DNA of 64,000 nucleotides. It comes from Ophelia neglecta (Eukaryota). The stretch lies in contig OZ260661.1 in the NCBI GenBank assembly GCA_965285935.1, positions 14,012,001 to 14,076,000 of the forward strand. The letters are read 5' to 3'. Under the pieces are notes generated by a model, which was not told the DNA's origin, did not search any database, and was given only the letters and a program-made list of their open reading frames with translations. How positions within the stretch are numbered: position 1 is the stretch's first letter; each line of letters begins with the position of its first letter. The position numbers were made by a program, and so were the translations under genes. Of this stretch, positions 8,641 to 43,525 are shown piece after piece.

Positions 8641-10787
8641 TCGCAATTAATACCCAGTTAGGTGCGGTTTACTGGAGTAGTTTAGGTCTGAGACATAAAG
8701 AGTCCAAAACTTCCAGAGAAGCTACTTTTTTTGCTAATTATTAATTCATTTTGCTTACAATATCGAATGAAAATTAATCTTAATTAAAAAGAATTTGCGC
8801 AGGGGCGAAAAGCATAAATTGGAAATAATAGTTAAAGTATAAATGTTTATTGACTATGGTCGTGGGCCCATGATCAATAGTCGAACAGATATTTATATAA
8901 TCAGTGTGGTAAGCGACAGTTCCAACCTCATTTAAGTCATTAGCATATTCCTGTCTGATTTAAAGCATCATGGGTAAACACAGCGAAGCTATACACTCTT
9001 ACGAAATCATCAGAGCTATGACTATCAGATAAAGTATAGTATACTTTACAATATAGCGCCTGAAAATGTATACAAATATAGTGGATCTGCACCTTGTGGC
9101 ACTCTGTATGTTATTACATGCCTGTGTATAAATTAAACTTTCAAAGGACATATTATCCTATTCGGAAATTAATGCCTCAGTGATCTGTGTAATTATCACT
9201 TGGATATCTTGCTTATCTAAGTTGTCTAGGTAAGTGTTAATATTAACGTTACTAATAGCTTAAGTTAATTTGAATATTTTCCCAGTGTAAATCTTCATTT
9301 TAAAGCGCCTTCGTTTACATTGCCGCCATTTTATCAGATCTGCACACTATGTCATTTCGAGAATACTGGGAGTCAGATCCAAACTGATATGTTTTAATAA
9401 GTAAGAATTATACATGAGTTCTTAATTTTCAGTGTCGAATAGCAAATGTATATGCAATTGTTCGGAGATAGGACCTGCAGATGGAAGGACGTTTCATGCT
9501 GTTATCACTCTATCTGGAAAAAAGTTTACACATGAGCCATAATATACTTATATGTATGTAATTCATAACCTTCTACCATTCACCCACCACACATGTACGT
9601 GGATGTTACGTGTGGAGGTCGGGATTTATCTGAAATTCATCTGAATTTTAGCGTAACCGAGGTCAGCCATTTTAGGGCCAAATAGATACAATTTTTAAAT
9701 TACCGACTGCCCTCTACCTAAAAGATGAGCCATGCTACACGGTATAAACCGGAATGACTTGGAAACCTTCAAACTTCAGTTTAAAGGAACTAGAGCATAA
9801 GTTTAATTTCAATAGTATTAGATTTTATTATAAACCTGTGTTAATTGCCTCCTTTTTTCATTGGTACAGCATAAATGTCAGTGACCAACTCTGCATGACT
9901 GTCTGCATCTGTAAGGTATAATTGCTTAAGTAATTTTAATGTTTTATGATTCTGTAACTTAAAGGTATTTTGGAGAATACGTATTGCTAACAAAAAATTA
10001 TAATGCAACTCATCAATTAACTACTATGGACCACTCCATAGAAAGAATTTTGTCACATGAATAGTTATAATCCACCATTGCAAGGTTGCCAAGCTCCGGG
10101 CGCGGCATTGCTGGGGATGTGTACGTTTTTAAGGTTACGAGTGGACAAAATGGAAGGTTTGCCTTAAGAACACGTGGCTAAGGAGCTGGAATCTCACCGG
10201 AATGGAATAAACAGATAAAAAAATTAGACGAAAATGTGTCCCGTGACAAAAATAATCGGAAACTTCCGAAAATGCAAGGGATTTATCAGATTTTGTGGCG
10301 TGAACGAGCAAATTGCGTGGGTCGTCCGGCGAATGCGGGGAACTAGGCAGGCCTGTCAATGATCGAAAGCTTTATAAAGTGATTTTCATTTTATTTTTAG
10401 TGCTTGAAGCGTTCGACCTGAAATTAGCTAAACTAATCCGCTTAATTCATCAGGTTTATGTTAATAACTCCGTCATTTAAAAATATAAACCACTGAAGTG
10501 ACGATCGTGAATGTTCAATTCGTATTGATGGTTAGAGATTGTGTTCTATCCACAATTAAATAAAAAGAATCCACAAAAGCCAACATCGTGCAACAGAATT
10601 TACATATGCATGTCAATTAATTCCTACCCTCTACTTGAGTTTATAGTCCACCACTGTTGCTTTGATGAAAGCAAGGTTTTTATTTTGCAGTATTTTTGCC
10701 TTTGTGCAAAATAATATAGCAGAAAATCGCGAAAAATCAGAATTCTAAGTAAATCACGATTCCAATGAAGTTAACTTGGTTACTTAC

Positions 10788-17722: not shown

Positions 17723-20260
17723 TATAAAAAAGACAAAAGTGGCCGCCTACATTTTCTTCTTGCCCCCCCCCCCCCCCCCTCCTACCCCTCCCTCCCCGAC
17801 TTAATAGGTTTAATGGGCTGAACCATCCAACATCTGGTCAGAAGGCAAATGAAGCGGTCTAAGAAGTGGGTAAGATGGGGCATTAATCTGAACCTGTGGT
17901 CATGCTAGAAATTACTAAAGCCAACGTATGTATCATACTGTGCTGTGAATCATGTGTGTAATATATATATCCATACCTAATCACTGCATTGATAGGTCCT
18001 TCTCTCAGTGGGTGTCTGTCCATATACTCCTAAAACTAAATATTATTCCTTGATTCCATCATAAGCCCGAAAGAGTGTGCTGTTTCTATCATTTAAATGA
18101 TAGCAGTTAAACTAGAACGAATGAGAATACTGTTCTCAGCCAAACCACTATAAACATGATCACTGTAACATGAACCGCAAACTGATAGTAACCGGATTCG
18201 TAGAGAGCAGGGTCCCTGAATACGAGGTAGCAGTACCCATCCCAGAGCACTCGAGACGCTTTCCGGGAGGCCATTTATAAACGCGGACGTGCGGAGGCTA
18301 CCGAAGGTCAAATACATTTCAGAGCCCTTATATGTCCAGAATAGATGGAATTCATTCTAGGGGAAGGTTTAGGGAATTGTGAATCTAGTGTTGTGTTATA
18401 ATCCGAGGTTTTACCTCCGCTAAGCCTAAGCAACTTCGCTTTTAATCCAAAGCCCTTTGCAGTACCGCACATATTAATTATGATAATTACGACACTTGCC
18501 TACCCCCCTACCCCCCCCCCTACCCCCCCCCCCCCCCCCAGAACCTCTCCCTACAAATCCGCATCACTTACATTTCTGTCGTCTGCCTCCACTAGTTCCG
18601 GGTGCATAGATTTTAGATAATACCACTTCACATATAGACCAAGTAGAAAGGTTAATAGTTCCTTATATAGAGCACAGTGCCTTTTTATAGAATACCAATC
18701 ACGACATCGATACAGTACAGTTTGTGGCGGAGCAGGAGGCAGGGTAGTACATAAGGAAGAACTTTTTGATGGAGGGGGGGGGGGGGGGCAATGAAGGTGC
18801 ACTTATTGAAACCAATAAAGACACGCCTGGTAATTTCGGACGTGTCCGTCGGCGTACCGTGGGGCCTAGCTAACCATGCAAATAATGACACCTCTGATGT
18901 GCTCACTCAGTCCTGCTGCACACTTTTTTCCACTTCATGGTTCGGTTGACTTGGACCCACCTGTCGTTTTCGGACACCTCCGAACAATTAAAAACTATCT
19001 ATTACCCTTAACCACATCGAACACTTTTCCTCTGGCTTGATCATGAGGGATTACTCCCACCTGTGCCTTCCAATTCCGTTCCCAACTTCCCCCACCCACC
19101 ATTGTCTTTGTCCAAATACCACACTTAGCTCTCACCCACCTAACCCACAAACTCTACCTCCCAAACCCATCCCCAACACGCCCCCTCCCCTCACCTCCAC
19201 CAAACTCCACTATCCCCTAAACCCTACCTTTACTATACTTTTCATTTTGTTTTTGTTCTTTTGTTTTTTCATCAAGCCAAAATGGGCAGCCACAGTTCAG
19301 CAATTCATTATCTAAGTCTCATTTTGCATGTTGCATGTTCGCATATTTTACTGTTCTGGCTACATAACTGCTGTTATCAGATAAGGCTCTATTTCGCATG
19401 ATTTCAATTCAAACTTGTATATTTTGTATTACAGAATTATTTCGTACATTAATTAATGCTTACATTATGTTATACATTCGTAACTTTATTTCTATTTTGT
19501 TTACAACATTTAATTAGGGGCCCCCTCCGTTAGCGGTGTTAACCTTGGAAGGGTATCCCTCAACCAGGTTACTTTCTATTGTTTTCCTTACTTATCCTGT
19601 CTTATCCTTACTTATCAAATTTAATTTTTTTTTCTTTCTTTATGCAATTATATTTTATTAGTTTTGTTTCTAGGTCAGTTTGGTTTTGAATACATGTTTT
19701 CTGGTTGAACATAAATGATCTGTATCTGTATCATTATGCCACAACCGCCCCCCCCCCCCCCGCCACCCTCCCCAACCACCACCACATACCCAACACTCCC
19801 ACTCTACACAGTAACCTGATGGGGAAATTATGGTAAAATAGTCTCTTTTCCTATACAAAAATACTATATTTACATAATTAGGATACTGCATTTAAGGATT
19901 GGACATCTCCAGTGACAAGTCCATCTTTCTGTACCCACACCACTGTTGAATAGCATTCCTTGTTTAGAGTTTAGTCTCTGGTAAAACGTTATTATTCATA
20001 ATTCATAGAATTGATATAACGTTTGAGGTTCCTATACACATCTAACAATGAGGATGTCCTCAGTTCTGGGTCGTCTACGAGTCAAGTTTATCTGAAAAAA
20101 AGCACCAAGGCAACTTGATAACATGATATTTGCAACATGCACGTAAGGGATGTTCCAGAAATTATCCTCAGGGAGGGGGTGGGGCGTGGGCGCAACGACT
20201 TCCTGTCCGGGATAGGGGGGGGGGGGGGGGGATTGGAAAAGGCCGTCCGCGATATGGGGG

Positions 20261-20266
20261 GTTAAA
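20261..20266. other. Left 6-bp target site duplication GTTAAA (right copy 45668-45673)
   Basis: Identical hexamer abuts both termini; 6-bp TSDs are typical of Polinton integrase insertion. Confidence 0.95.
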
Positions 20267-21007
20267 AGTAGTGTATGTAGGTCCGCGAGGCTCACTCACG
20301 AAAAATAAGAACAAAAATAAGAACAATAACAAAAGCACGTGGTGGAGCTTGATGGCACGTGGTGTCGGGGCCCAGAATCAATTCAACCGAAATTTAACCT
20401 TTGACCTCGATGCGGATTGGTCCCCCTGGGTCATGTGGGGGTAAAGGGTGGGGTGGGGGTAGAGGGGGTAGAGGGGGTGGAGGGGTATAGGAGGGGTATA
20501 GGAGGGGTATAGGAGGGATAGGGGAGGGGGGGAGGGGTGTGGTCACCGGGGTGTGGTCACCGGGGGAGGGGGGATTACTGGGGTGACATATGCTTATACG
20601 TGTACATGTACATACATGCACATGCAAAATACAGGCTGCTGGGGCGATCATACAGGTAAACCTAATTAATTTCATAATTAACTTTCGCGCGGATACCTGC
20701 GAAAGTCAATTTTATAACGCGCAGTCATTTCGAGCCTTTCTTCTAGGCTTTTGTTTCTTTAGCCAGACCCCCCCTAAGATGGCCGCCCGCTGCAAACAAT
20801 GAACCAGCTGAGGCAGCGAGTCGCCTGCCACTCACACACGCACACTGCCACACCCACACACAGTCCTATACGCTATACGCTGCAGCCTGTACAGTGTTGG
20901 CCTATAGCCAGCCAGCCGGCTGCACTGCACTGTGCTCGCACCGCTCGCTCCACCCTGCTCTCGCCATGCATTCAACGTGGTGAAGTAAGTTTGGCGGTAA
21001 AATGGGC
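20267..21007 (+). repeat. Left terminal inverted repeat (about 740 bp)
   Basis: Reverse complement of 44901-45667 with a few substitutions and indels. Confidence 0.95.
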
Positions 21008-21300
21008 ACCAACCATGCGTTTATAGATACTCATATATTAATAAGTATTAATTTGAATCATGCTTTTAAGAATCTCCCTTGCCACATTAATATTGACCTG
21101 GTATAAGAAAACATTATGACTAGCTTATGCATGTGAATGTTCATGCTGTGCATTTAACATTAACAATACGCTGATGTAGCGAAAATAGTATTTAGCTCAT
21201 GCTGTGTAGCGACCATTTTTGTTTTAGGGCGTCATGTTATACGCTTTTCACTATTACGAGCAGTTGGTAACGTGAATACTGACGAGGCGAACGTGCGTGT

Positions 21301-22107
21301 ATGATTATGGATGGTGATAGGAGTTTAGACCTAGTCTCAAACAAGCAAATGATGAATTCTTTCATGAACGATAACTCGATACCCGAGATGAGTCCATTTC
21401 GACTGGGTCAGGAAATGAATGATGCTTATCTTGAAGACGAAGAAAATGATTCGATCTGTGAGCTCAGGACTTCACTGACTTCCGAAGAAAGAAAGTGGGC
21501 TTCGCTTAATCATGAAGTTATCGACCGGGAGTCCATTGTGAAAACATTTTCGGACTATAGCAGTTTAACTGCCTATACATATATAGACTGGATCGTGTTT
21601 GACGATTTCAACATTCCAGCGGGAAAATCTGAACTCGTCTCAGAGCCTCAATATATAAATAGCGGCACTTACAGCTATAGAGTGGGGATGACTATGCAGC
21701 CTCCAGGATATGGAGAGGCCCGCGATTTTTATTCTCTCTTCTTTGTGCTATACCCTGGAGACTATGATCAACTATTGAAATGGCCGTTTCCATATAACAT
21801 AACATTAGCTCTGGTATCAAACTCCAAAGTTTTGTTAGAAGAAAAAAATCAAGGTGGAATTCATATTCCGGCATTCGGAATACCGTCTAAATGTGGTTTA
21901 ACCCCTAAATTACCGGTCGGTTTCCCTGATTTTTTACATAAATCGATGGCAAACAGAACTTTAGCAGGAGAAAATGTGTTTCGGAAGCTTACTAACGGGA
22001 AATCCTATCTTCACTTTGTGCTCAGAATAGAACTGGCAACTGGTAATAGTGTGTTAACTCAGGACACATCCTGTTTGTCTTTTAAAAATGAAACATTTCA
22101 ATACTAA
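21301..22107 (+). CDS. Stand-alone TRAF-C/MATH domain protein without RING or zinc fingers, carried by the Polinton
   Basis: SEPQY...YSYRVGM...GYGEARDFYSLFFVLYPGDYDQLLKWPFPYNITLALV...GFPDFL matches the TRAF MATH signature (SLFF.I..G.YD.LL.WPF); AATAAA at about 22149. Confidence 0.8.
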   Translation: MIMDGDRSLDLVSNKQMMNSFMNDNSIPEMSPFRLGQEMNDAYLEDEENDSICELRTSLTSEERKWASLNHEVIDRESIVKTFSDYSSLTAYTYIDWIVFDDFNIPAGKSELVSEPQYINSGTYSYRVGMTMQPPGYGEARDFYSLFFVLYPGDYDQLLKWPFPYNITLALVSNSKVLLEEKNQGGIHIPAFGIPSKCGLTPKLPVGFPDFLHKSMANRTLAGENVFRKLTNGKSYLHFVLRIELATGNSVLTQDTSCLSFKNETFQY

Positions 22108-22135
22108 GTTTGTTTATATCTATTGTTTGACTAGT

Positions 22136-22470
22136 CCTGTTTTTGAATAATAAATACTCTTTATCCAACCTCTATATACATATGTGTTTTATCAATCTGT
22201 CAGCATGTTTACGCACTGCAACGGCAGTCTGAACAGCTGACAGCAATTCAATACCAACTGCAACGTAACGGTTCGTTTAAATGTAACGGTTATTCGTTGT
22301 TCTTTTTCCATCATACAGTAAAAACTACATTAATTCGTTAAGCCTGCAAGCAAGATGGTGTTTATATGTTATTACTATGAGAAAAGCCTAAATCCCATTA
22401 GATCTGATAAACCATTAAAGTGCTAAATGTCACAGTAAAGTTAATCCTAATAGGCGCTCGGTAGAGATAG
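22136..22470 (+). pseudogene. Degenerate duplicate of the pPolB upstream region and first zinc-finger exon (intact copy about 23155-23455)
   Basis: CCTGTTTTTGAATAATAAAT...TTACGCACTGCAAC...GTAACGGTTATTCG...GATGGTGTTTA.ATGT..TTA...AAAAGCCTAA...GTTAATCC.AATAG..GCTCGGT shared by both; this copy has lost the reading frame. Confidence 0.8.
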
Positions 22471-22630
22471 CTAGATTACATTTATTCATCTAAAAAGATG
22501 TGTTATAAATAATAAAAATAAATAAATAAACCCGACCGATTGGTCTTTTATGATGATTGTGAAAGAACCTTTCTGGAAAGTGTGGTTGGCTCTGAAAAGA
22601 GCCGTTTTTGTATCCCCACCGTTTTCCATC

Positions 22631-22996
22631 TTACTTTCTAGTGAGAAAGAAAAACGGGTGGGGATTTTCCCGGATTTCTCTATCCCAATCTTCAGTTTGG
22701 GGTATGACGAAATCCGGGGAAGGTCCGAAAACTGCCGAGTATTTCGGGTCATTCATCGCAATTTCTTCACCCTCCTCCGTTCGGAAGTCACACTCCTTCA
22801 AGTGGTCTCTCGCGGTCTCTTCCGCAACCATGTGAAGAGCGCTATACGGACATCTTACTAACTTCTCATGTCGAGGATTCCGTTCGCACTTCAGCAGATG
22901 TCGAAGAAGTCGCGAGCACCGTACAACGTGTGCCCTGTTGTACGGGCAGACTATAAGATCAGTGGCAACTGAGTTTCTAGTGGTGAAAGACGCCAT
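22631..22996 (-). CDS. GTSF1: GTSF1/Asterix-like protein with two CHHC (U11-48K-type) zinc fingers and an EDWD segment, 121 aa, intronless
   Basis: CPYNRAH..RCSRL..HLLKC and CPYSALH.V.......HLKEC, then PQTEDWDREI...HPFF; ATG at 22996 in ACCATGG context, TATAAAAG about 45 bp upstream, minus-strand AATAAA at 22481-22486. Confidence 0.85.
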   Translation of the reverse strand: MASFTTRNSVATDLIVCPYNRAHVVRCSRLLRHLLKCERNPRHEKLVRCPYSALHMVAEETARDHLKECDFRTEEGEEIAMNDPKYSAVFGPSPDFVIPQTEDWDREIRENPHPFFFLTRK

Positions 22997-23346
22997 GGTG
23001 ATTTCAGAAATCAGAGTGGCTTTACCTAAGCACCCACGTACTTTTATAGTCAACTAGGTGCTTCTATGTCAAGCTAATTTACATAACGCGTAGCCAGCGC
23101 TAGCCAATAGAATGAGCTCGCACTAAGTTTATGCATATCTACTGCTAGACACGCCCTGTTTTTTGAATAATAAATGTTCTTTGTCTATCTTACATACATC
23201 TGTGTTTTATCCATATGTCAACATGGTTACGCACTGCAACTGTAGTCTGAAAAGCTAACGAAAAACCAATTCAAACTGTAAAGTAACGGTTATTCGTAAT
23301 ATATTTTCAGCACCATCCGGCAAAGTGCGTTCAGGCAGCAAGCAGG

Positions 23347-23572
23347 ATGGTGTTTAGATGTCGTTATTGCGATAAAAGCCTAAGTTCCACAAGAAATCTG
23401 ATTAACCATGAAAGCATTTGTAAGGTTAATCCGAATAGATGCTCGGTGAAAAAGCGTGTAACCTGTCCGCGTTGTGGGCATGATTACAACTGTAAAGGAG
23501 CTTACACAGCTCATTTGCCAAAGTGTAAAGGTGAGTGAATTACATTTGTTAAATTTCTAAGTATGTGAATGC

Positions 23573-23620
<48 letters not shown>

Positions 23621-26600
23621 TTACTCCTATTTTGTGAGCCAAATTATGTTAATTCACCGTTTTCTTCTTCTATTTTTTGGTACTAAGCTGCTGGTAAGGA
23701 AAATCAACTCAAGCAGAGTCATGTCAATCAGCCGCAAAGCACAAGCGATGATGATGGGAACATACCTACTCAAAGTAATCAGTCTACCTCTGCTGTCTCG
23801 GACCGCCTTGACACCTCAACATCGAGTCACGTTTTCAACCGATCTACGGGAAAACGACAGTCGGCCATGCCCACCAACTCCCATGCCAAAAACCCGAGAC
23901 GGAATGGTGATACCTTTGTTGTTAAAAGTGGAAAGAGACCCGCCGCTGCTCCATCTCCTACAAAACAATTTCAAAATATAGGGCTTGAATCTGTGCCTTC
24001 GATTGAACAGAACACCCCTCACCCTATGCGCTTTGAATATGAACAGTTACGGTCGGCGTTGGAAGAAGACTGGGAACCGGAAGCCGTGGAAAAAATTATT
24101 GACATGTACAAAAACAAGTGGCCGTCAATTCGACGACCGAACTATAGACTTAGCGCAAATGTAGTCCTGAGTATCAACCCAGATTTATTGGGAGAAATAA
24201 GATCAATTCTTAAGGATGTGCTCAAATTCCACAGGAAAGCAGTCAAGGTAAATATAACTTTAGGTAAAATGTTATATTCTAGAGTTCAAAATAAGGCGCG
24301 CTGGTTTTTTCCTACCTCTCATGGTAGGGATTCCGTTTTGGATGAGTTTACCAGTATTGCATCTGACGCTGATATTGAAAATATTATGAACGTAATTGAG
24401 CATAAAGATCTTGCAGTTGAACTTACCAAAAACAGACCTAACAGTTCGTGGTCTGGCGTCATGTTTACCAATGTCATTGTGACACATATACCTATTGCTG
24501 CGCTAAATAAAACACATGACGTTGTTAGAAGTATTAGGAAATGCTGTCGAGAGTTTCCTAATTGGAAAGCTAGAGATAATACTATTATCAGTCATTTTAC
24601 TGGTAAAAATAACAAGCGAAAACACTACAAGGATGGGCTTTGCTTTTTTAGAGCCCTTGCCCTTTGGAGATTAGAAGTTACATCTGCAAAGGACGTTAAA
24701 GTCGATGCAGAGTTTCACCAGCTGGTACAAACACTCTTTCTCGAATTTTGCGAGTTCAAAGAGAAATTACTGGTAGATAATGGGACACTAGATCCTAATT
24801 TTCCCAAGGCAAATGAGGGGGTTGACCGAGAGGATATAAGATTAAATGGAATTGCTCCTTGCGAATTACCACTGTTAGAAAAGTGCTTTGGAATAAATAT
24901 AGTTCTTACTAGTAAAGATGAGAGGATGGAAACAATGGTAAAATACATGTCTTGTTTTCGGCATGATCTGGATAATAAAAAAGTGCTCTACCTTGATTTA
25001 TATGAAGATCATGCATCCTACATTCCTGATATAGATAAATATGCAGGCACGTTCCATTGTAAAAATTGTGATTTTATTTGTGGTCGGTTTCAACATTTAA
25101 AACAACATTTGAAAAATCGACAAGGTTGTTCAAAGCACCCTGTACACAAATTTGAGGGTGGAATGTACAAGCGGCACCTGTCTGTCTTTGAAAAAATGGC
25201 TTTAAAGGGTATTAAATTTCAACAAGGTGAGCGGTGGTATCCCTATCATGCCTCATTTGATTTTGAGAGTTTGCATGAGAAGTCTGAGGACTATTCGACC
25301 ATTGATGAATCAGTGGAGGCCATGCTTGCTTCTGAAACTGGTAAAGGTGAAACTAAGTTCATAACCACCCACAGACCTATCTCCGTTAGCGTGTGTACTA
25401 ACGTGCCTGATTTCACTGACCCTCACCACATATGTAGGACAGTTAGTGAGCGAAAGTTAGTTACCGACATGTTTGATTATCTTGGTTGTGTGCAGAAGAA
25501 AGCTGCTAACATAATGCTTGAACAATTTCAAAGCTGCTTTGATCAACTCGATAAGCTTCATCAATCATTGTGCGAATATTCTCACACACTAAAAACAGAA
25601 AGGACAGGGCATTGCTTTAAAGATGATGAGATTGAACAAATCGATAAGTTTGTTTTGGATATGATCAATGCAGATATTGAAACAAAATGTCAAGCAAAAA
25701 AAACAAAGAAAGCTAACGCGCGTTCGGTAGTTATTAATCAAACTAGTGATTGTGAGGAGGAAATGGATGATATATTTGATCTAGAGGAAAATGCGTGTAA
25801 TATAATGGACGTTGATTTTGATGGAGAGTGTGTAAATGCTGAGCAGGGTGGAGAGGAGGATAGGGTAGGGGTGGCAGACGATGCTTATGACACACTTGAA
25901 TATATGTTGGATCCCAATGGGAAAATTTCGTTAAATGGAAAAGTCATTGACCGTTTTGAAAGGGAAGCAGAGGAGGTCAAATCTCTCATTTCATCGTTGA
26001 GACATTGGTGTACCGAGCTACCTGTTTTGGGTTTTAATTCAGGTACATATGATATGAAACTAATTAGAGAATACTTCCCTGAATGCCTAGAAGAATTAAC
26101 GGAGGTTGATGAGAAGGCAAAGGTACGCGTAATCAATGGTGGCAAAGGTTTTATGAAAGTTTCTAATGGTCAATTGAATTTTTTAGATGTGAAAAATTAC
26201 TTAGCACCCGGCAGTAGTTTAGCCGGATTTTTAAAGCAGAGCAACTGTGTTGAGACAAAAGGTACATTTTGTTATGAATATTTAGTGCATATAGATCAGT
26301 TGAAAGAAACTAGTCTACCTCCCATCGAATGTTGGTATAGTAAGCTTAAGGGATGCAGTAGTTTAGGTCGAACCGAAGAGGAAATTAAAAGCACCTACAA
26401 AGAAATGCAAAGCATTTGGGTCAGGGAAGACATGCACTGTCTCGGTGATTTTTTGAAATGGTATAATAATCAAGATGTTGCTCCAATGTGTCATGCTGTT
26501 GAAAAGCTGCGCTTACAGTATGTTAAAAAAGGCATAGACGCTTTCAAAATGTGTATTTCAAGTCCCGGTGCCTCTTTGCATATCGGTATGAAAATTGCCG

Positions 26601-28861
26601 AGGAAGAGGGGTATACATTCCCTCTGATCAATGAATCAAACTGCGACTTCCATTACAAAATTGAGCAAAATCTAACTGGTGGACCAAGTATTGTTTTCAA
26701 CCAAAAGAATTTCTCAAAAATCACAAAAATCAGGGGCACTGAAAATAAAGTCCAATCGATTAAAGGATTAGACGCTAATTCTCTGTATCCGTTCTGTATG
26801 AAACAAAACCTACCTACCTCTACATTTATTAGGAGGAGGGCTACTGAAGGTTTTAGAGCTGAACGGATGGATGGTTTTAATTCCAGCTTTGTTGAAAAGG
26901 AGTTTTTCACTTACCAAAACCACGAGAGAAAGCTACGCAAATTGACTCCGATTATAACAAAAGAAACTAATGGGGGGAGAGACATTAAAGTGGGAAGGTA
27001 CAGGTTGGATGGTCTATCTCAACCAGATCATGATATAAGTGAATTTGAAAGTGATGATATCGCCTTTTTTTCAAAGCATGGTTTATTAGATAGGATGATA
27101 AAACCCATCGCGTGGGAGGTTAATGGATGTTACCATCATGGCTGCTCTTGCATGATCAAAAAAATATTTGAACAGCTAGAACAAACTGAAAACCCCGAAG
27201 ACAAACTGCATAAAGCCTATTTGCTAGAAAAATTACTCCAACGTAGGTTTGAAACAGAGTCAAAAGCTATGAGCCTGGATGCACTTGGGTATGTCGTTGA
27301 AATAATGTGGGAGTGTGAGTGGCGTGAAATATTGAAAACTTTTTCATTTGACCAAATCGAAAATGGTCATAAGATAAAGCCCTATCTGACTCGCAAGTTT
27401 AACAGTGGCAAAGATAAAATAGATGAAGCGTTTTTGATACGCGAGCTAAGCATGGATTTCCCAGAGAACGGAGAAGGTTTTTTTGGTTTGGTCAGGTGTG
27501 ATATCGAAGTGCCGCAAGAAGATATCGACGATGGAAAGTGGGACGAATTGGCGCCCCTTTTTATAAATACTGTCATTACTGAAGAAGATTTAACCGACTA
27601 CCAAATTGAACGCTTATCTCAAATGCCGGGTGCTAAACAACCAGTGAAACTGAAAAGAAGAATGTTAATTGACTGTTGGAAAATAGTGGGAGGAAATGGT
27701 CTTTTCTGTACAGAATTGTTGAGGTGGTATATTAAATTTGGCTTGAGAATAACAAAAATTTATGAAATTTTTGAAACTGTTCCAGGCAAGCCTTTTAACA
27801 ACTATATAGACTCGGTCGTGAAAGATAGAGTTTCTAAAGATAAGGCCGAAGTTATGCTTGACGCATACAATATTGTTATTAACGATCAGGAAAGGATGCG
27901 ACTTTTATCAGCACAACAAATAGAAAAAATGCATAGAGAAGTAGAAAGGTTGAAAGACGTGTGTATGATAGGAGATAGGTCCAAGGTGGATATGAATAGT
28001 TTTTATGGTAAACTTCTCGAAAACAAATCAAAACAAGAGGAGTGTAAATTTGTTAGAGGCATGACATCATCGTGCATAGAAGCTAGCAAACCTGGTTTAA
28101 AAAGTCATGTGCGTATAGGAGAAGACTCCTATCAAATAGGTAGAGCTAAAAGAAATATTAATTTCAACATGCCCAGTTACCTTGGCCTGTTTGTTTTGCA
28201 ACTAGCTAAGCTAACCGTTTTGCGGTTTGTGTACGAGTTTCTGTACAAGTGGTGTGATCCCGACAAAGTTCAGGCTTGTCAGATGGATACCGATAGTTTT
28301 TATGTTGCTATCGCAGGTCAAGGATTAGAAGATTGTTTACGAGAACAAGATTCTGAACTAGAAAATGAATTGTATTTGGAAAATTTTCGGGAGGCTTGTA
28401 AAGTTTGGTTGGCTACCGAGGAAATGGGAAATCTTAGGGCCCCAGGTTATTTTAAACTGGAATGGTCAGGCGAACGTATGCTTTCCCTAGCCTCTAAAAC
28501 ATATGCTGCAGACGGAGAGGGTGTTCAAACAAAAGTTTCGGCTAAGGGTGTACAAAACAGACTCAACGTTGATTTATTAACTGTAGACAATTATGCTCAA
28601 TGTTTGGAATCTGGCCAGCCAGTGCTTGTCACTCAGGCGGGTATTAGAATGGGGCGGGATTATGAATGCGCTGAGTATTGTCAACCGCTCGACAATCATC
28701 TTGTTAAAACATATAAAGGGTGCAAAGTCGGGTTGAACGCATGTAATTTACTGAAACGGAGAGTGTTTTCTGATGGAAGCACCCTCCCACATGCAAGGGC
28801 GTTCGTGATTGAAAAAATAGAACCTATGAAATTTAAACGAAGGCGCCTTGATAGAACCTAG
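23347..28861 (+). CDS. polB: Protein-primed family B DNA polymerase; predicted join(23347..23530,23688..28861), about 1785 aa; unspliced ORF 23867-28861
   Basis: ExoI SFDFES, ExoII GFNSGTYD, ExoIII YNNQDV, polymerase motifs LDANSLYP, K...NSFYGK, MDTDS and KTY; OTU-like DGLCFFRAL and VSR-like EVNGCYHHGC..WECEW; donor AAG|GTGAGT and acceptor after a pyrimidine tract keep the frame. Confidence 0.93.
23576..23618. repeat. (AT)n microsatellite inside the predicted pPolB intron
   Basis: Directly visible. Confidence 0.9.
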
Positions 28862-28929
28862 AATATCAACATGATAAAGTTATATTTACTATGATGTGTA
28901 TTATATGTATATTGTATATTTATATGGTT

Positions 28930-29160
28930 ATACTAAAGAATTAAATCACAACAAGAATAATAATATATTTTTTATTAAACCAAGTTTATTTCTAATGAAT
29001 CATTCGAAAATAATGTGGTATTATGATTATATTCTATGTATTGAAAAATAAAATAAAATGTTCATTAACCAAGTCCACTTTTAATCAATCATTCGAAAAT
29101 AATGTGGTATTATGATTATATTCAATGTATTAAAGAAATAAAATGTTCATTTCTTCAATT
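28930..29160. terminator. AT-rich region between convergent genes, with an 89-bp-period duplication and AATAAA signals on both strands
   Basis: AATCATTCGAAAATAATGTGGTATTATGATTATATTC at 28998 and 29087; AATAAA and TTTATT hexamers; lies between the stops of polB and ORF 29173. Confidence 0.5.
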
Positions 29161-29172
29161 ATTTTTCTGTCA

Positions 29173-29922
29173 TCATCTTGTTATATATTTCTTTACTTTA
29201 GCTCTCGGATCTCCAACTTTATTCGACGTACACATCCGTTTTTTAGGCGAAGGTTTAAGCGGCGTGGGAGGGGGTTGATTGCCTGACACAGTCACTCCAT
29301 TGCTAGCCATCAGATGTACGGGGTAGGGTCCTGCAGGTATTTCCCGTTGAACTAAGTTAGGGTTGGGTTTTTTGTTGATCATTGCTGGCCCAGGTTGTTC
29401 AATATGACCCTGATTGGTAGAGAGCTGGTTCATATTCATCAAGTCAGTGAGAATATGGTCGGCGTTGTAGCTGTCGAACATTTGACCTTCTTGTCCCGCA
29501 TAGGCAGACATATTTTCGGGACACTGAGTTTGGCCTGTCATGTCAGCTACTCCTGCTGCTTCTCCGCTGCTCACCTCGCACTCTTGAAATTGCTCATCTC
29601 CCTCGTCATAAATGCTGTTAATGTCTTTCAGAATCCACACAGCAGGAGCGTTAATTTCTGCTCCTGCAGAAACTTTTACTAATGGTAAAGTGTTCAGGTT
29701 GGTTAAATCTCGCATCGATATATATATAGGACAGTCTCTTACCCCATCAACTATGAAACCGTAGTGAATTGTCCTATTATAGTCACCATCTTCATTCATC
29801 AATTCGCTGATCAGAGTCAATTTAGGTCGGCTATGGCGTTTTCGTTTTGCTATTTTAGTCACTTCATTAGGTAGATCAAGAGCTACTGGTAGAGCCATGA
29901 CGCTTGTTGTTGTGTCTTCCAT
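29173..29922 (-). CDS. Polinton hypothetical protein (249 aa) with low-complexity C-terminal half and NLS-like PSPKKRM
   Basis: Long ATG-initiated ORF within the element; no family recognised. Confidence 0.65.
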   Translation of the reverse strand: MEDTTTSVMALPVALDLPNEVTKIAKRKRHSRPKLTLISELMNEDGDYNRTIHYGFIVDGVRDCPIYISMRDLTNLNTLPLVKVSAGAEINAPAVWILKDINSIYDEGDEQFQECEVSSGEAAGVADMTGQTQCPENMSAYAGQEGQMFDSYNADHILTDLMNMNQLSTNQGHIEQPGPAMINKKPNPNLVQREIPAGPYPVHLMASNGVTVSGNQPPPTPLKPSPKKRMCTSNKVGDPRAKVKKYITR

Positions 29923-30190
29923 GACTAATACTTTTTGAATGAACCGTAAAGTCAGTTTACCAAAAAAATATACAGAGTCTTGACATTCCCAGACAGCATG
30001 AATTTTTCAAATATTATCCGCTACCAGTTTAACCGTCACCCGCTTATTATACATTAACTAGCGCAGCTTGAGATCAGCTGGAAGCATTATTTATGACTCA
30101 CCAACTGTCTAACGGTCACCGTCTAATTTGAAAGAAAAGAATCTCACACCATCGCGTCATGTTATGAGTGACAAAAGGTCAACATCTGGT

Positions 30191-31705
30191 TTATATCCAA
30201 GTGTAAGCAATCTGCCTGTTGCCCATCAATTCTAGATTGTCGTTGTATGTACTGAAAATTATCATGTTCATAGAATGGGCAAGGGGCTGCTTAAATTTAA
30301 CATGAAAGTTTATGGGTGATGTATTTAAAGTATCGAAAATATTAGAACTAGGGTCTTGGTCTTGGTCATTGGTCAAATCAAATGGGAAAAGCGTGTACCC
30401 TTCTTCACACCACTCTCTGTAATTCAAATCTAATGTTTTATTACCGAGTGAATTAAAACCAATCTTTTTAAACTCTTTGTAAGGGTCCATAGCACTGCCT
30501 GTCAGTGCGGCTTCACTGTTATCTTCGGCCAAATTCAAATTTTTATATTTAGAAGCCGGATAATCTTTTCCATTTCTGGTGAAATACATTTCGTCTATAT
30601 TAGCGTTTACAAAATCAAATATGCTATGTCCGTATGACCCTTGGAAGTTGGTTGTGTTTAGCATACCCACTATTACTCTCCGCGGAGATTGATTATTAAA
30701 CAAGCTCTGAGCATTGTAAGTACCTGTGCCTGCAGGAATATTATGTTGTTTAAGCTCGGTTCTGTTAGCTAGGGGGTAATTTGCAGGGTGGGATCTGAGG
30801 TATGAGTTGACTTTCATTTGATCATTATCATCAAGTTTATGACGTACCAGGTTTATGTATATGTCTTCTATAACCATTTTAGTATCCGGTGCCGTGTTGG
30901 CGTTAGCCGGACCCCTCCCATTTTTCCAAAAAATACTCTCGTCGTTAGCAGTCAAATCAACTGTTATGTCAGTATTGGGAATAATGCACTTTGGCTGTTC
31001 GAATAAAAAATGTTTAAGTTTTCCCGATATATAATAACTTTTTGTGGGTTCAGCCGTTTTCCCCAACCTCAAACTTATGTTAGGATTAGATTCGTGGTAT
31101 GGGATGTCTTCTGTACCGACGGCAACGGCGGTTCGGCAAGGTTTGCTAAGTTTTTCGAACCATGTCGTTTCCCCTAAATATTCTACATCTTCTTCCTTCG
31201 TAGTGGTTAATGTTTTAATCCATGCACTAATTGCATAGTTTTGATCGTGGTCGTGAAGAATTTCTTGATTAATAGACACCTTAACAAACTTCCACAGTGA
31301 ATGTAAAATTTGAGTTTCTGGGTAAGACAGCATATCTGCATTCAAAATTGTATTTTCGGCATTTGTAGTTGATTTAGGTTTGTTAGCTCCGTTTCTGTTC
31401 ACAATTTTAAATTTAATACGTATTTCACTTTCTTTAAGGTTCATCCATAAAGCATTACCCCCCAAGAGAAAGGTAAACACACGCACACCAACCGCATCTT
31501 GTTGTATACCTTGTAGTGGTCTAATCAATTCTTCTGTGGTGTTTGTTATCGACCTCTGTACCGGAGGTTTGTAGCCGACATCAAATTGAGGTAGAAAGAC
31601 GGAATTAAGCCTAGCATTGGGGATGGGACTTTTTTCAGTAGGTTCCTGCATAGATCCGCTCTGTCCTTTGAAAGCATGTTTTCTTTTTTTCATACTAGGA
31701 GGCAT
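30191..31705 (-). CDS. Polinton major capsid protein (double jelly-roll, PY-like), 504 aa
   Basis: Size and motifs LHSLWK.VKVSIN, PRRVIVGML...FQGSY..SIFDF, GYTLFPFDLT.DQD typical of Polinton major capsid proteins. Confidence 0.88.
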   Translation of the reverse strand: MPPSMKKRKHAFKGQSGSMQEPTEKSPIPNARLNSVFLPQFDVGYKPPVQRSITNTTEELIRPLQGIQQDAVGVRVFTFLLGGNALWMNLKESEIRIKFKIVNRNGANKPKSTTNAENTILNADMLSYPETQILHSLWKFVKVSINQEILHDHDQNYAISAWIKTLTTTKEEDVEYLGETTWFEKLSKPCRTAVAVGTEDIPYHESNPNISLRLGKTAEPTKSYYISGKLKHFLFEQPKCIIPNTDITVDLTANDESIFWKNGRGPANANTAPDTKMVIEDIYINLVRHKLDDNDQMKVNSYLRSHPANYPLANRTELKQHNIPAGTGTYNAQSLFNNQSPRRVIVGMLNTTNFQGSYGHSIFDFVNANIDEMYFTRNGKDYPASKYKNLNLAEDNSEAALTGSAMDPYKEFKKIGFNSLGNKTLDLNYREWCEEGYTLFPFDLTNDQDQDPSSNIFDTLNTSPINFHVKFKQPLAHSMNMIIFSTYNDNLELMGNRQIAYTWI

Positions 31706-31754
31706 AGCTCTGACACGTCTGTTCCGGTGAGAACTAAAATGTCTAATGGACGCT

Positions 31755-32426
31755 TTAAGCTTCAGACAATACCTTAATAATATGAGGGTTGGAAAAAAGA
31801 ATTTTCTTTTTAGTCAATTGATTGCCTTTGGCTAAAAAAGTAAGGTGCTTTAGGATTTTGTCCTTCCCTTGGAAATCAACTTTTTTTTTCAATATATTTT
31901 TTGCTATATTGGAAAACATTTTAATATCATTGATACCGCTCTTAGACCAGAGGCGGGTGAGAATATCACTTTTCTTCAACCCTCTATATGTTTTCAACAG
32001 CTCCGATACGGAAGTGGAATTAAATCCGTTGTCACCAACACCGCCATTGTTAACTGAGACTTTCACTGATGGTTTCTTTTTTTCGCCCGTTTTCTTTTTC
32101 AATTTAGTGTGGATCTTTTTCAATTTTCTCACACCGGACTCTGATTCTTCATTTTGCCCGTTATCATCAAGCTCTGTTTCACTGTCATTGATGTCGGCAA
32201 TTTTCTTTTTACCTTTACCAAAAGGAAGTTTTTTTCTGGACTTAGACTTAGATTTGGTTGTTTTATTTCTTCGTTTACTAACGACTCGACCATTGAGTTT
32301 CCTTTCTCTTACTTCCATCATGTTCAAACTTTTTGTTGTTGGTTCATTCCAGTGGGCTAAGCTGGTACCATTATTCCATTGATCCATCCTAAAATCAAAG
32401 GCAGTTTTAATTAGAATCATAGGCAC
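31755..32426 (-). CDS. Lys-rich basic protein (223 aa), possible core or DNA-condensing protein
   Basis: ORF with K/R-rich tracts, co-oriented with and directly upstream of the major capsid gene. Confidence 0.6.
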   Translation of the reverse strand: MPMILIKTAFDFRMDQWNNGTSLAHWNEPTTKSLNMMEVRERKLNGRVVSKRRNKTTKSKSKSRKKLPFGKGKKKIADINDSETELDDNGQNEESESGVRKLKKIHTKLKKKTGEKKKPSVKVSVNNGGVGDNGFNSTSVSELLKTYRGLKKSDILTRLWSKSGINDIKMFSNIAKNILKKKVDFQGKDKILKHLTFLAKGNQLTKKKILFSNPHIIKVLSEA

Positions 32427-32477
32427 ATCATAAGCATATCAAACACGCATGTAACATTAAACCGACCTGTACATACA

Positions 32478-32666
32478 TCAGAACCGCAATCCTAATGTAG
32501 GGTGGGGCTTAAACTTTTTCCTCGGTCCTCCAAACGCCGCTTTAAATAGAGGAGCCATTAAAGTTGAACCAACAGCAAATGCAAGTGACAATGATCCGCC
32601 TTTTTGACAACGCTTCTTTCGCCTTTTCAGTTTTTTCCTCACCGAACATTTTCTCTTGCTAGCCAT
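32478..32666 (-). CDS. Small basic core-like protein (62 aa) with QKGG motif followed by a hydrophobic segment
   Basis: MASKRKCSVRKKLKRRKKRCQKGGSLSLAFAVGSTLMAPLF; layout resembles adenovirus pX-type precursors. Confidence 0.6.
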   Translation of the reverse strand: MASKRKCSVRKKLKRRKKRCQKGGSLSLAFAVGSTLMAPLFKAAFGGPRKKFKPHPTLGLRF

Positions 32667-32805
32667 TCTTAAACTGTCTTAACTCTATGCTGACACTCAC
32701 ATATATATTCATCCGTTTAAATCTAAGCTTATTTTTTTACAAGCTTTTTGAGGAGACAGGTCATAACATGGCGAGGTTGGTTTTCTTTATGCATCAAATA
32801 TTTTA

Positions 32806-35589
32806 TAACGTCAGATTTAGTAACGTCAGATTTAGTAACGTCAGATAAAGTAACGTCCGATTTAGTAACGTCAGATAAAGTAACGTCAGATTTAGTAACG
32901 TCAGATTTAGTAACGTCAGATTTAGTAACGTCAGATTTAGTAACGTCAGATAAAGTAACGTCAGATTTAGTAACGTCAGATTTATGTCAGATTTAGTAAC
33001 GTCAGATTTAGTAACGTCAGATTTAGTAACGTCAGATAAAGTAACGTCAGATTTAGTAACGTCAGATAAAGTAACGTCAGATTTAGTAACGTCAGATTTA
33101 GTAATGTCAGATTTAGTAACGTCAGATTTAGTAACGTCAGATAAAGTAACGTCAGATTTAGTAACGTCAGATTTAGTAACGTCAGATAAAGTAACGTCAG
33201 ATTTAGTAACGTCAGATTTAGTAACGTCAGATTTAGTAACGTCAGATAAAGTAACGTCAGATTTAGTAACGTCAGATTTAGTAACGTCAGATAAAGTAAC
33301 GTCAGATTTAGTAACGTCAGATTTAGTAACGTCAGATTAAGAGTAACGTCAGATTTAGTGACGTCAGATTGAGTAACGTCAGATTTAGAGTAACGTCAGA
33401 TTTAGTAACGTCAGATTTAGTAACGTCAGATAAAGTAACGTCAGATTTAGTAACGTCAGATTTAGAGTAACGTCAGATTTAGTAACGTCAGATCTAGTAA
33501 CGTCAGATTTAGTAACGTCAGATTTAGTAACGTCAGATTAAGTAACGTCAGATTTAGTAACGTCAGATTTAGTAACGTCAGATTTAGTAACGTCAGATTA
33601 AGTAACGTCAGATTTAGTAACGTCAGATTTAGTAACGTCAGATAAAGTAACGTCAGATTTAGTAACGTCAGATTTAGAGTAACGTCAGATTTAGTAACGT
33701 CAGATTTAGTAACGTCAGATTTAGTAACGTCAGAATTAGTAACGTCAGATAAAGTAACGTCAGATTTAGTAACGTCAGATTTAGTAACGTCAGATTTAGT
33801 AACGTCAGATTTAGTAACGTCAGATAAAGTAACGTCAGATTTAGTAACGTCAGATTTAGTAACGTCAGATAAAGTAACGTCAGATTTAGTAACGTCAGAT
33901 TTAGTAACGTCAGATAAAGTAACGTCAGATTTAGTAACGTCAGATTTAGTAACGTCAGATAAAGTAACTTCAGATTTAGTAACGTCAGATTTAGTAACGT
34001 CAGATTAAGAGTAACGTCAGATTTAGTAACGTCAGATTGAGTAACGTCAGATTTAGAGTAACGTCAGATTTAGTAACGTCAGATTTAGTAACGTCAGATT
34101 TAGTAACGTCAGATAAAGTAACGTCAGATTTAGTAACGTCAGATTTAGAGTAACGTCAGATTTAGTAACGTCAGATCTAGTAACGTCAGATTTAGTAACG
34201 TCAGATTTAGTAACGTCAGATTTAGTAACGTCAGATTAAGTAACGTCAGATTTAGTAACGTCAGATTTAGTAACGTCAGATTTAGTAACGTCAGATTTAG
34301 TAACGTCAGATAAAGTAACGTCAGATTTAGTAACGTCAGATTTAGAGTAACGTCAGATTTAGTAACGTCAGATTTAGTAACGTCAGATTTAGTAACGTCA
34401 GAATTAGTAACGTCAGATAAAGTAACGTCAGATTTAGTAACGTCAGATTTAGTAACGTCAGATTTAGTAACGTCAGATCTAGTAACGTCAGGTTTAGTAA
34501 CGTCAGATTTAGTAACGTCAGATTTAGTAACGTCAGATTAAGTAACGTCAGATTTAGTAACGTCAGATTTAGTAACGTCAGATAAAGTAACGTCAGATTT
34601 AGTAACGTCAGATTTAGTAACGTCAGATTTAGTAACGTCAGATAAAGTAACGTCAGATTTAGTAACGTCAGATTTAGAGTAACGTCAGATTTAGTAACGT
34701 CAGATTTAGTAACGTCAGATTTAGTAACGTCAGATTTAGTAACGTCAGATAAAGTAACGTCAGATTTAGTAACGTCAGATTTAGTAACGTCAGATTTAGT
34801 AACGTCAGATCTAGTAACGTCAGATTTAGCAACGTCAGATTTAGTAACGTCAGATAAAGTAACGTCAGATAAAGTAACGTCAGATTTAGTAACGTCAGAT
34901 TAAGTAACGTCAGATTAAGTAACGTCAGATTTAGTAACGTCAGATTTAGTAACGTCAGATTAAGTAACGTCAGATTTAGTAACGTCAGATTTAGTAACGT
35001 CAGATTTAGTAACGTCAGATACGTCAGATTTAGTAACGTCAGATTTAGTAACGTCAGATAAAGTAACGTCAGATTTAGTAACGTCAGATTTAGTAACGTC
35101 AGATTTAGTAACGTCAGATTTAGTCAGATTTAGTAACGTCAGATTTAGTAACGTCAGATTAAGTAACGTCAGATTTAGTAACGTCAGATTTAGTAACGTC
35201 AGATTTAGTAACGTCAGATTTAGTAACGTCAGATAAAGTAACGTCAGATTTAGTAACGTCAGATTTAGTAACGTCAGATAAAGTAACGTCAGATTTAGTA
35301 ACGTCAGATTTAGTAACGTCAGATTTAGTAACGTCAGATAAAGTAACGTCAGATTTAGTAACGTCAGATTTAGTAACGTCAGATAAAGTAACGTCAGATT
35401 TAGTAACGTCAGATTTAGTAACGTCAGATAAAGTAACGTCAGATAAAGTAACGTCAGATTTAGTAACGTCAGATTTAGTAACGTCAGATTTAGTTAGGTC
35501 AGATTTAGTAACGTCAGATAAAGTAACGTCAGCTTTAGCAACGTCAGATTTAGTAACGTCAGATTTAGTAAAGTTAGATTTAGTAACGT
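32806..35589. repeat. 15-bp tandem satellite (AGTAACGTCAGATTT, variant ...ATAA), about 185 copies, about 2.8 kb
   Basis: Directly visible; occasional 17-bp and 10-bp variants; variant pattern repeated at about 668-bp spacing. Confidence 0.98.
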
Positions 35590-35591
35590 TT

Positions 35592-36050
35592 ATTCAAATT
35601 GTTAAAGGTCTACCGAATACGGAAATATTTAACAAAATAAGAAAAGACAGGCTCATTATTCTAGATGATTTGATGTCGGATTTACATGGTCAGACTGTGA
35701 ACGATTTGTTTACAAAAGGCTCTCATCACACTAAAACTAGTGTCTGCTTATCTACTCAAAATTTATTCGATGCACATATGAGAACGGTGTCCATCAATTC
35801 TCACTTTATGGTTATTATGAAAAACCCTCGAGACAAAAAAAAATTTAATAATTTAGCCTGTCAAATGTCATCTAAAAGTGGAAATAATTTTCTCAACGAT
35901 TGCTTTAGATGTGCTACATACAAACCTCATGGGTATCTATTTATGGCCCATGATCAAAATACTCCTGACATTCTAAGATTTCGAACTTTTATTTTTCCTG
36001 ACGACCCTAAGAATGTAGTTTTTGTACCGTGGAATAAATCTGGTATTTAA
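35592..36050 (+). pseudogene. Polinton A32/FtsK-HerA-like packaging ATPase, C-terminal half only (Walker A absent)
   Basis: In-frame IQIVKGLP...RLIILDDLM (Walker B), LFTKGSHH..SVCLSTQNLF, RTVSINSHFMVIMKNPRD, HGYL, TPD.LRFRT.IF; no GxxGxGK found upstream. Confidence 0.88.
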
Positions 36051-37416: not shown

Positions 37417-37752
37417 ATGCCAAGGAGGAAAGGGATATCAAAACAGGATGTGTCCTTTGAGAACAGGTTGGATAATATTTTCACAAATCCACGTAGTGCA
37501 GGAAGCTTTGGGGGTGTAGATGCACTGTTTAAAGCTGTTCATAAAGATTGAAATAAAAAGTTCATTTCAAAAGGCAGAGTGAAAAATTATTTGTTATTTC
37601 AAAGAGCTTACACCCTACACAAACAACCCAAACAAGATCTTCCGAAAGATATCAACCCGGAAATTAACCAAGGCGTCCAACAAGATTTTTTTGGCACGGG
37701 TAACGAAGTGAAGCTGGAATTACATTTTAGACCTGTTAAACATGGCCACTAG
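37417..37752 (+). pseudogene. Integrase N-terminal remnant fused in frame to a penton-like C-terminus, with an internal stop (TGA 37549-37551)
   Basis: Manual translation MPRRKG...LDNIFTNPRSAGSFGGVDALFKAVHKD*NKKFISKGRVKNYLLFQRAYTLHKQPK...EVKLELHFRPVKHGH*; GSFGGV...AYTLHK is the Polinton integrase N-terminal signature; no DDE core. Confidence 0.8.
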
Positions 37753-40697: not shown

Positions 40698-40939
40698 TAG
40701 ATACATAACTTGAATTTGAAACATATGCTTGGAAGGGCAGTCAGCTCATGTGATTTTCTAGACTCCCACGAGGCAATGACTCAATCTTCCCGCGCGTAGT
40801 CAATATGTGCAGGGTCAACTAACACAGCTGTTTCTTTTTAATATAATGTTTGCCTGGTCATCGTTCCGTGTGACATCAAAGTAAGAACGTTGATTATATT
40901 TCTGACATTTTGACATTCATGTGAGAGTGAATTATTAGT

Positions 40940-41386
40940 ATGTCAGAAGAATTTGACCTGGAGCTCTTGGCGGGGAAGGTTGATTCACCGGTAAACTTTG
41001 TGTCATACTTTCCCAAGGCATTGGATTTCGCTGACGGAGGTCTATGGCACGTTGCCTTGAGCAAGGCGGTTTTTTCATTTATCCCGCCAAAAATGGTGTT
41101 CGTGCATTTAGACATTGTCGAACCTGTTGCTTATGGCTCTATAATGAAAAGCCTACTGAGACTGATCATGCCTTTACACGAAAATGAAAGACATTTCGAA
41201 TACACTCCCAATGAATTGCTCTATATAAAAACGCTCACCAAGTCGTTTAATTTCATAAGGGTAACACTTGCGGACGGAAATGGCAACCTGTTAAAACTTC
41301 CTAACCTTAAACACTTGCATAAATACCAGCACTCAGTTAGTTTAACGTTAAGCTTTAAACACGTGTTTCCACCCCCCGAGCTGTAA
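40940..41386 (+). CDS. Minimal penton-like minor capsid protein 3, 148 aa
   Basis: NFVSYFPKALDF..GLWHVAL...VFVHLDIVEP..YG....LLR...YI......IRVTL.D.NG...LTLSFK. Confidence 0.7.
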   Translation: MSEEFDLELLAGKVDSPVNFVSYFPKALDFADGGLWHVALSKAVFSFIPPKMVFVHLDIVEPVAYGSIMKSLLRLIMPLHENERHFEYTPNELLYIKTLTKSFNFIRVTLADGNGNLLKLPNLKHLHKYQHSVSLTLSFKHVFPPPEL

Positions 41387-43296: not shown

Positions 43297-43525
43297 TTCG
43301 AAAGCCAACAAAGTGTTGTCACACATCGTATAGATAAGCACTGATGTGAACACGGCGTAGACAGATGAAAAAATGATCCCCAACTGAAAAATTTGAAACT
43401 TACTATAACCACGCCCTCTTATGACGTCTCGGCATCATGATTGGTTAAGGAAAGCGTTGCCAAGTCTTGGGTAGAATGATAAGGGAGATATGAATAATAG
43501 AAACAATCAACACTTACCTAGTATA

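Follow-up and report, generated by a model that had tools for sequence, protein, structure and literature searches.

The gene found next to the left end of a Polinton-type element in the window (the whole 64,000-nucleotide stretch of Ophelia neglecta DNA that was analysed) is predicted to encode a whole TRAF domain, that is, a TRAF-N stalk followed by TRAF-C, and not a lone MATH domain. The reading that we place first, with a little less than even confidence, is that its product is a putative non-catalytic decoy that blunts host TRAF signalling.

21301-22107, plus strand: RING-less TRAF gene, 268 amino acids (short N-terminal tail; predicted TRAF-N stalk at residues ~32-87; TRAF-C/MATH at residues 91-247)

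The original prediction had described a 268-amino-acid open reading frame (ORF) with a TRAF-C signature, and this was confirmed by the Pfam family TRAF-mep_MATH (PF21355; 44.7 bits, E 2e-11, cut-off 27.4). At the local base composition, the chance of an open frame of 266 codons is about 1e-8 per start. Sequence search of the PDB with this ORF gave 31 matches at E ≤10, the best being TRAFs, and the identity to solved TRAFs was 17-23%. The AlphaFold2 model, built from an alignment of 67 sequences (mean pLDDT 75.8), consists of a 56-residue helix (residues 32-87; pLDDT 78-97 for residues 31-80) and a strand-rich domain (residues 93-245). This domain was superposed on residues 351-500 of TRAF2 with a Z of 17.5 and an rmsd of 2.1 Å over 142 residues, above meprin (Z 15.6) and SPOP (Z 14.5). 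Both the Pfam match and the superposition thus point to the antiparallel beta-sandwich of the TRAF-C/MATH type, the fold on which the original prediction depended.

Immediately N-terminal to TRAF-C, a TRAF-N coiled coil is present as a prediction. Its heptad pattern at residues 52-86, a stretch picked once the model was known, was equalled by 37 of 20,000 shuffles, and the prediction of the stalk draws on an alignment in which TRAF coils abound, and the control model made from the single sequence was uninformative (pLDDT 30.7). Hence, the N-terminus previously described as acidic does have an acidic tail, whereas most of it would be stalk. Translation likely starts at Met3 (21307), since the commonest form in the sample contigs described below lacks an ATG at the position of the first one. 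No LxCxE/D motif was found in the TRAF ORF or in that of its GTSF1-like neighbour.

The element that carries this gene spans 25,401 bp (20267-45667), starts with AGTAGT, ends with ACTACT and has the hallmarks of a Polinton/Maverick (adintovirus), namely long terminal inverted repeats (TIRs) with AGT-type ends and a 6-bp target-site duplication (TSD). The following features were assigned to it:

20261-20266, no strand: left TSD, GTTAAA (second copy at 45668-45673)
20267-21007, plus strand: left TIR, starting with AGTAGT (donor-like GTAAGT inside, 20985-20990)
23347-23530, plus strand: predicted first exon of polB, with two zinc-finger-like motifs, then a GTGAGT donor at 23531
23687-28861, plus strand: main reading frame of a protein-primed polB, 1,664 codons
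30191-31705, minus strand: putative major capsid protein, named from its position and size (25% identical to the gene at the same position in the related polB locus L002)
32790-35590, no strand: 2.8-kb array of 15-nt units, occupying the place of ~70 N-terminal codons of the packaging ATPase
35589-36050, plus strand: packaging ATPase, C-terminal part only, without Walker A
37423-37650, plus strand: integrase remnant, the N-terminal ~76 codons with an in-frame stop, remainder missing (39% identical to the integrase of L003, E 2e-9)
41827-42297, plus strand: putative maturation protease, presumably of the adenain type (33% identical to a gene in the polB locus L024)
44901-45667, minus strand: right TIR, last bases ACTACT

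The two TIRs are 95% identical across 679 columns and 88% identical across a further 66. The polB gene is of the protein-primed type, as in Polintons/Mavericks; its match to Pfam DNA_pol_B_2 (E 8e-5) lies under the family cut-off, and homologues were found in 21 of 5,038 candidates (best identity 51%; best named homologue from a sea cucumber, 31%). It is apparently spliced, with a predicted first-exon region at 23347-23690. Capsid, ATPase and protease have homologues in related polB loci, the capsid and the protease being without a Pfam match. The integrase remnant marks the element as a member of the Polinton lineage, the intact gene being missing from this copy, and from its sequence the element is read as a non-autonomous, defective Polinton copy in an animal genome, with both integrase and ATPase broken. 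As the 6-bp TSD is exact despite the integrase remnant, either the gene was lost after insertion or the copy was mobilised in trans.

By eye, three adjacent ORFs (327, 652 and 148 amino acids; 37742-41386, plus strand) resemble repeats of one minor-capsid-type module, and the 652-amino-acid one matches the minor-capsid-type gene of loci L006 and L009. Three right-end ORFs (145, 233 and 101 amino acids; 42889-44906, minus strand), the last of which begins within the inner end of the right TIR, form a second accessory block without an assigned function; they were negative in Pfam, and the 233-amino-acid one also in the PDB. A second MATH domain in the right-end ORF at 43853-44554 was considered and rejected, since the profile matched the TRAF ORF alone and Pfam and PDB were negative.

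Viral fibres consist, in outline, of a trimeric coil and a beta-sandwich head. The coil and head predicted for the TRAF protein recall this arrangement, so that a trimeric stalk-and-head protein might serve as a virion spike or fibre. However, the gene adjoins polB, whereas capsid and protease are encoded elsewhere in the element, and no segment that might anchor the protein to a capsid is obvious; we regard such a structural use as highly improbable.

The absence of RING and zinc fingers from the TRAF ORF was upheld. No RING or zinc-finger family of Pfam matched it, residues 1-90 include a single Cys and a single His, and no RING pattern occurs in any of the six frames of the region 15-50 kb of the window. 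The five open frames within the left TIR gave no Pfam match. The protein is, in consequence, without the N-terminal RING and zinc fingers of a canonical E3-ligase TRAF (TRAF2-6). Splicing onto an upstream RING exon, to which the original prediction had declared itself vulnerable, was considered with regard to the nearest acceptor:

21214-21227, plus strand: acceptor-like pyrimidine tract and AG, 5' of the TRAF gene

Two stops are located in the TRAF frame between this site (21227) and the ATG, so that any intron ending there would belong to the 5' UTR. With the nearest acceptor blocked by stops and no RING pattern nearby, a spliced RING-bearing form was rejected on the sequence. A poly(A) signal (AATAAA) is present at 22149, 3' of the TRAF stop.

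Architectures of this kind occur elsewhere. No RING or zinc-finger family was found in 49 of the 71 relatives scanned (of 122 matches), many of which may be fragments. Examples are a TRAF2-like protein of Branchiostoma and a MATH protein of Endozoicomonas, none of them close to the element TRAF. The latter, P0029 from the bacterial symbiont Endozoicomonas ascidiicola, is a RING-less TRAF-type MATH protein and shows the same stripped architecture in an organism that likewise lives in association with animals. In mammals, TRAF1 and RING-deleted TRAF2 share with the element TRAF the combination of TRAF-N and TRAF-C without a RING, and the model was superposed on TRAF1 with a Z of 17.3, stalk range included. 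Unlike the element TRAF, TRAF1 retains the receptor hot spots (PMC6125299) and one zinc finger (PMC2194023).

RING-deleted TRAF2 is a dominant negative that still binds the receptor (PMC2194023). The original prediction drew on RING-deleted TRAFs as dominant negatives, and the corresponding possibility is that the element TRAF, with the architecture of a RING-deleted TRAF, competes with host TRAF2/3/6 for PxQxE/PxExxAr motifs on receptors or MAVS. Px(Q/E)E motifs are held by TRAF2 in a hydrophobic pocket (F410, L432, F447, F456 and C469, hot spot 1) and by R393/Y395 and S453-S455, which make the P0 and P1 contacts (PMC6125299). The TRAF2 positions were transferred to the element TRAF via a TRAF3 chain, with spacings that agree with the TRAF2 numbers, and via the alignment of relatives. 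In the hydrophobic pocket, the equivalents of F410, L432 and F456 are identical (3/5), C469 is replaced by F and the F447 region is poorly aligned. Hot spots 2 and 3 are lost, R393 being replaced by T, Y395 by Q and S453-S455 by I-P-A. The position of D399, which we take to be another receptor-binding residue of TRAF2, reads Y. The arginine of the R393 strand, presumably used by TRAF6 as well, is likewise missing. None of the six polar receptor positions of TRAF2 is thus retained, which argues against a textbook dominant negative competing for PxQxE; the analogy does not hold in the form originally given, and we consider this mode of action improbable. The same six positions were compared in 62 relatives, and none was retained in 10 and all six were retained in 8. 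Hence, loss of the hot spots is no viral hallmark.

Altered hot spots mean other ligands, rather than none, in TRAF4 and TRAF6 (PMC6125299), and with this precedent a new ligand is plausible for a protein whose polar groove has changed but whose fold and, for the most part, hydrophobic pocket are retained. The element TRAF might then be a repurposed adaptor, whose TRAF-C head recruits a host or viral protein through a new peptide specificity and redirects signalling. Among the head replacements listed between the window and the sample contigs, 3 of 4 fall at codons 175-183, near the groove, and virus and host provide parallels: a TRAF encoded by an iridovirus drives apoptosis (PMC3352826), and TRAF1 seems to aid TRAF2 survival signals (PMC2194023). 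Against this stands the lack of a second functional domain for linking in the element TRAF, and we hold the redirected adaptor to be unlikely. The redirection could serve survival signalling, in the manner of TRAF1, or degradation, in that of other MATH adaptors; either version is to us just as unlikely.

The decoy reading is ranked ahead of both the redirected adaptor and the classic receptor competitor. The gene would be expressed from its own promoter region beside the left TIR, and its product would trimerise via the predicted stalk and enter host TRAF trimers, which would then have fewer RINGs and a weaker grip on the receptor. Such hetero-oligomerisation is plausible because the RING-less TRAF1 hetero-oligomerises with TRAF2 (PMC2194023). 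Alternatively, instead of competing for PxQxE, the protein may bind a non-canonical partner through the largely retained hydrophobic pocket. Wherever the element is active, NF-kB, antiviral or death signalling would be dampened. The decoy is favoured by the whole TRAF-C fold, the predicted stalk, the missing RING, the largely retained pocket, the location in the slot upstream of polB, where adintoviruses typically have host-modulating genes (PMC8502044), and the core columns retained and the excess divergence described below. An invertebrate MAVS-TRAF6-NF-kB pathway, moreover, exists (PMC5557890). It is weakened by the divergence of the stalk, which is such that pairing with host TRAFs may have been lost, by the integrase and ATPase defects of this copy, and by TRAF1 itself, a natural RING-less TRAF that can promote signalling and appears to back TRAF2 survival signals (PMC2194023).

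The gene is, as originally described, convergent with a GTSF1-like gene and lies with it between the left TIR (which ends at 21007) and polB. This Polinton therefore has a sub-terminal accessory slot that houses both the RING-less TRAF and GTSF1. The GTSF1-like gene is flanked by a direct repeat of ~350 bp:

22631-22996, minus strand: GTSF1-like gene, with two CHHC fingers and an EDWD motif (Pfam E 1.9e-11)
22103-22471, plus strand: direct repeat copy 1, from the TRAF stop codon and including the AATAAA at 22149; holds, in decayed form, a second version of the region 5' of polB and of the first-exon start
23122-23455, plus strand: direct repeat copy 2, the polB upstream region and the start of the predicted first exon

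The ORF was aligned with mouse GTSF1 over 105 residues (E 1.9e-13), and a TATA-like box ~50 nt upstream and a minus-strand AATAAA (22481-22486) accompany it. GTSF1 accelerates PIWI slicing (PMC9385479), so an intact copy is not self-evidently inhibitory. Of the RNA-binding basic residues named in the same work, R26, R29 and K36 are identical in the element GTSF1 and K39 is replaced by R; together with the tandem CHHC fingers they place the protein with GTSF1/Asterix. One of the three PIWI-contact tryptophans (W107) is in register, whereas W98 and W112 are not (an F stands one position off W98); the gene further differs from GTSF1/Asterix in its location on a mobile element and in being intronless as read. 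By its residues the element GTSF1 looks intact, and since the RNA-binding residues and W107 are retained, nothing marks it as an inhibitor. The proposal that it acts against piRNA silencing thus loses its footing.

The two genes look separately acquired. The GC content at third codon positions (GC3) is 51% in GTSF1 (62/121), which differs from the viral core (p 0.0007) and from TRAF (p 0.02), whereas TRAF (38%, 102/266) matches the core (36%, 1278/3585; p 0.39); besides, GTSF1 has its own direct repeat, whose copies are identical at 261 of 329 aligned bases (79%). This suggests that GTSF1 arrived by a later insertion with duplication, probably as a separate, later capture into the same slot as TRAF. 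In L002, the closest relative with upstream DNA, the polB/capsid layout is the same and other ORFs occupy the 2.6 kb upstream of polB, and membrane segments were predicted by eye in two of these. On the strength of these comparisons, the slot upstream of polB appears to be a variable cargo space with no fixed cassette, and the two-gene unit put forward originally is not supported. No support was found for the division of the two genes between a virus phase and an integrated phase. At position 22794, the contigs of all three sample runs match the 3' part of GTSF1 and then diverge where the second finger lies; they probably represent a second, diverged GTSF1-like gene, perhaps that of the host.

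Protein searches revealed how far the TRAF gene has diverged. With the full library, 122 matches were obtained at E ≤0.001, none of them close, and a word-indexed search yielded no relative of TRAF (0/244 candidates) or GTSF1 (0/1). A tree built from 66 MATH regions gave the element TRAF an end branch of 2.12 changes per site (median 0.55), without supported placement in any TRAF subfamily; the closest relative in this comparison is 32% identical over 118 columns. Even so, 25 of the 44 conserved columns of the MATH region (at least 60% of relatives agreeing) are retained. An open frame and these columns, kept along such a branch, argue for long selection for a folded protein, and the match in GC3 with the core together with the retained columns argues for long residence. 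This suggests that TRAF is a long-term resident of the element, selected to fold, and its origin is likely an ancient capture from an animal that served as host.

The window was also compared with contigs of three runs from one sample, which cover all 30 bins of 18900-32700 and, as they may stem from the window's own source, are non-independent. Two contigs cover the 3' half of TRAF without gaps and show 10 mismatches to the window in 447 bases and 13 in 549 (2.2-2.4%), whereas the remaining pieces listed for these runs show 26 in 9,069 and 27 in 7,270 (Fisher p 5e-6 and 2e-6 against TRAF). The pieces of core genes and GTSF1 listed differ by 0.1-0.7%, and TRAF is about eightfold more different than the core genes from the form of one sample. 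A piece that covers the upstream region and the 5' end of TRAF differs at 45 of 508 bases and has 9 gaps, and a second form was seen among the sample contigs in this region. Among the 40 differences listed (of 366), 15 lie in TRAF, where 9 codons are changed by replacement and 5 silently; there is no stop and no gap within the ORF among them. The proportion of replacement codons (9/14) is compatible with neutrality (p 0.19; head alone 4/8, p 0.07), and the three head replacements at codons 175-183 lie in or beside the groove-lining strand. Since silent and non-coding sites differ too, these differences are read as a sign that the block is variable and that its alleles are old or have been exchanged, rather than as demonstrated positive selection. 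Contig depth was greater over the element than in flank-specific contigs, such depth being no copy number. A contig joint that skips 22663-23751 was not trusted, as 30 letters only supported it.

These data bear on a further possibility, that the gene is a captured passenger, at present without a role, which drifts in a sub-terminal block prone to recombination. The defects of this copy, the fit to neutrality of the differences listed and the divergence of the flanking non-coding DNA agree with such drift. In contrast, the frame is open and the structural core retained after ~2 changes per site, the poly(A) signal is in place and the 3' half is free of gaps in two sample contigs, which makes a passenger very improbable in our judgement.

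Host-like cargo has been described in related viruses. In adintoviruses, host-like 'Oncoid' genes typically precede PolB, and homologues of Bcl2 and IAP have been seen too (Starrett et al. 2021, PMC8502044); the element resembles these adintovirus/Polinton accessory genes in having host-like cargo 5' of PolB. In the legend of Fig. 5 of that work, the map of a related MELD virus includes a gene labelled TRAF, with predicted similarity to TRAF3. On the adintovirus maps of Fig. S2, the label 'MAEL', which we take to stand for the piRNA factor Maelstrom, occurs four times, once near an ITR (PMC8502044). GTSF1 is not named in the text of PMC8502044 or in the part of its supplement that was available. 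TRAF, MATH and piRNA find no mention in the accessible portion of a coral polintovirus survey (PMC11131425), nor do TRAF and GTSF in a term search of the available text of bioRxiv 10.64898/2026.10.13.758929. Among titles and abstracts of a literature that mostly leaves subscription papers outside its coverage, no report of a Polinton-borne GTSF1 was found.

Other viral TRAFs are known as well. The fold matches of the element TRAF among viral proteins are TRAFs of megalocytiviruses and giant viruses, and the viral structures that matched best (E 1.5e-11 and 8.8e-10) are the virus-encoded megalocytivirus TRAFs, ORF111L of ISKNV and its relatives. They belong to another virus group, with 16-20% identity to the element TRAF, and ORF111L, which possesses a RING, is a TRADD-binding, pro-apoptotic protein (PMC3352826). 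When viral contigs were scanned with single proteins, nothing was found for TRAF, capsid or GTSF1, nor with the polB alignment. A TRAF motif scan of the same contigs returned one locus, L001, which was rejected as a Polinton TRAF since the contig belongs to a large DNA virus and its TRAF is complete with a RING. In L001, this RING and zinc-finger TRAF (8744-10387) lies close to IAP-like and thymidine-kinase-like ORFs, named by eye. None of 37 metagenome polB loci had a MATH or CHHC match, a weak absence because just 7 of them extend at least 2 kb before polB and only L002 (43%) is close.

Taken with the published host-like cargo upstream of PolB and the known viral TRAFs, the presence of a TRAF here is of limited surprise. 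Knowledge of animal Polintons comes almost solely from the sequences of genomes. If the decoy reading is true, a long-kept, fast-diverging TRAF decoy would be evidence that they face host immunity in the state of active viruses, in the form of a small, testable protein. The element GTSF1 may perhaps be worthier of attention than TRAF, as it presents a puzzle: a target of PIWI carries the cofactor that speeds PIWI slicing. A wider proposal, which we find doubtful, is a host-conflict island by polB, in which a RING-less TRAF with a rewired groove, exchanged as divergent alleles, poisons host TRAF trimers and a captured GTSF1 tunes PIWI slicing to the advantage of the element. The GTSF1 side of this proposal, doubtful to the same degree, would consist of either unproductive occupancy of PIWI or boosted slicing of rival elements. 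If the island were real, it would provide the first demonstration of a Polinton that acts on innate signalling as well as on the catalytic step of the piRNA pathway.
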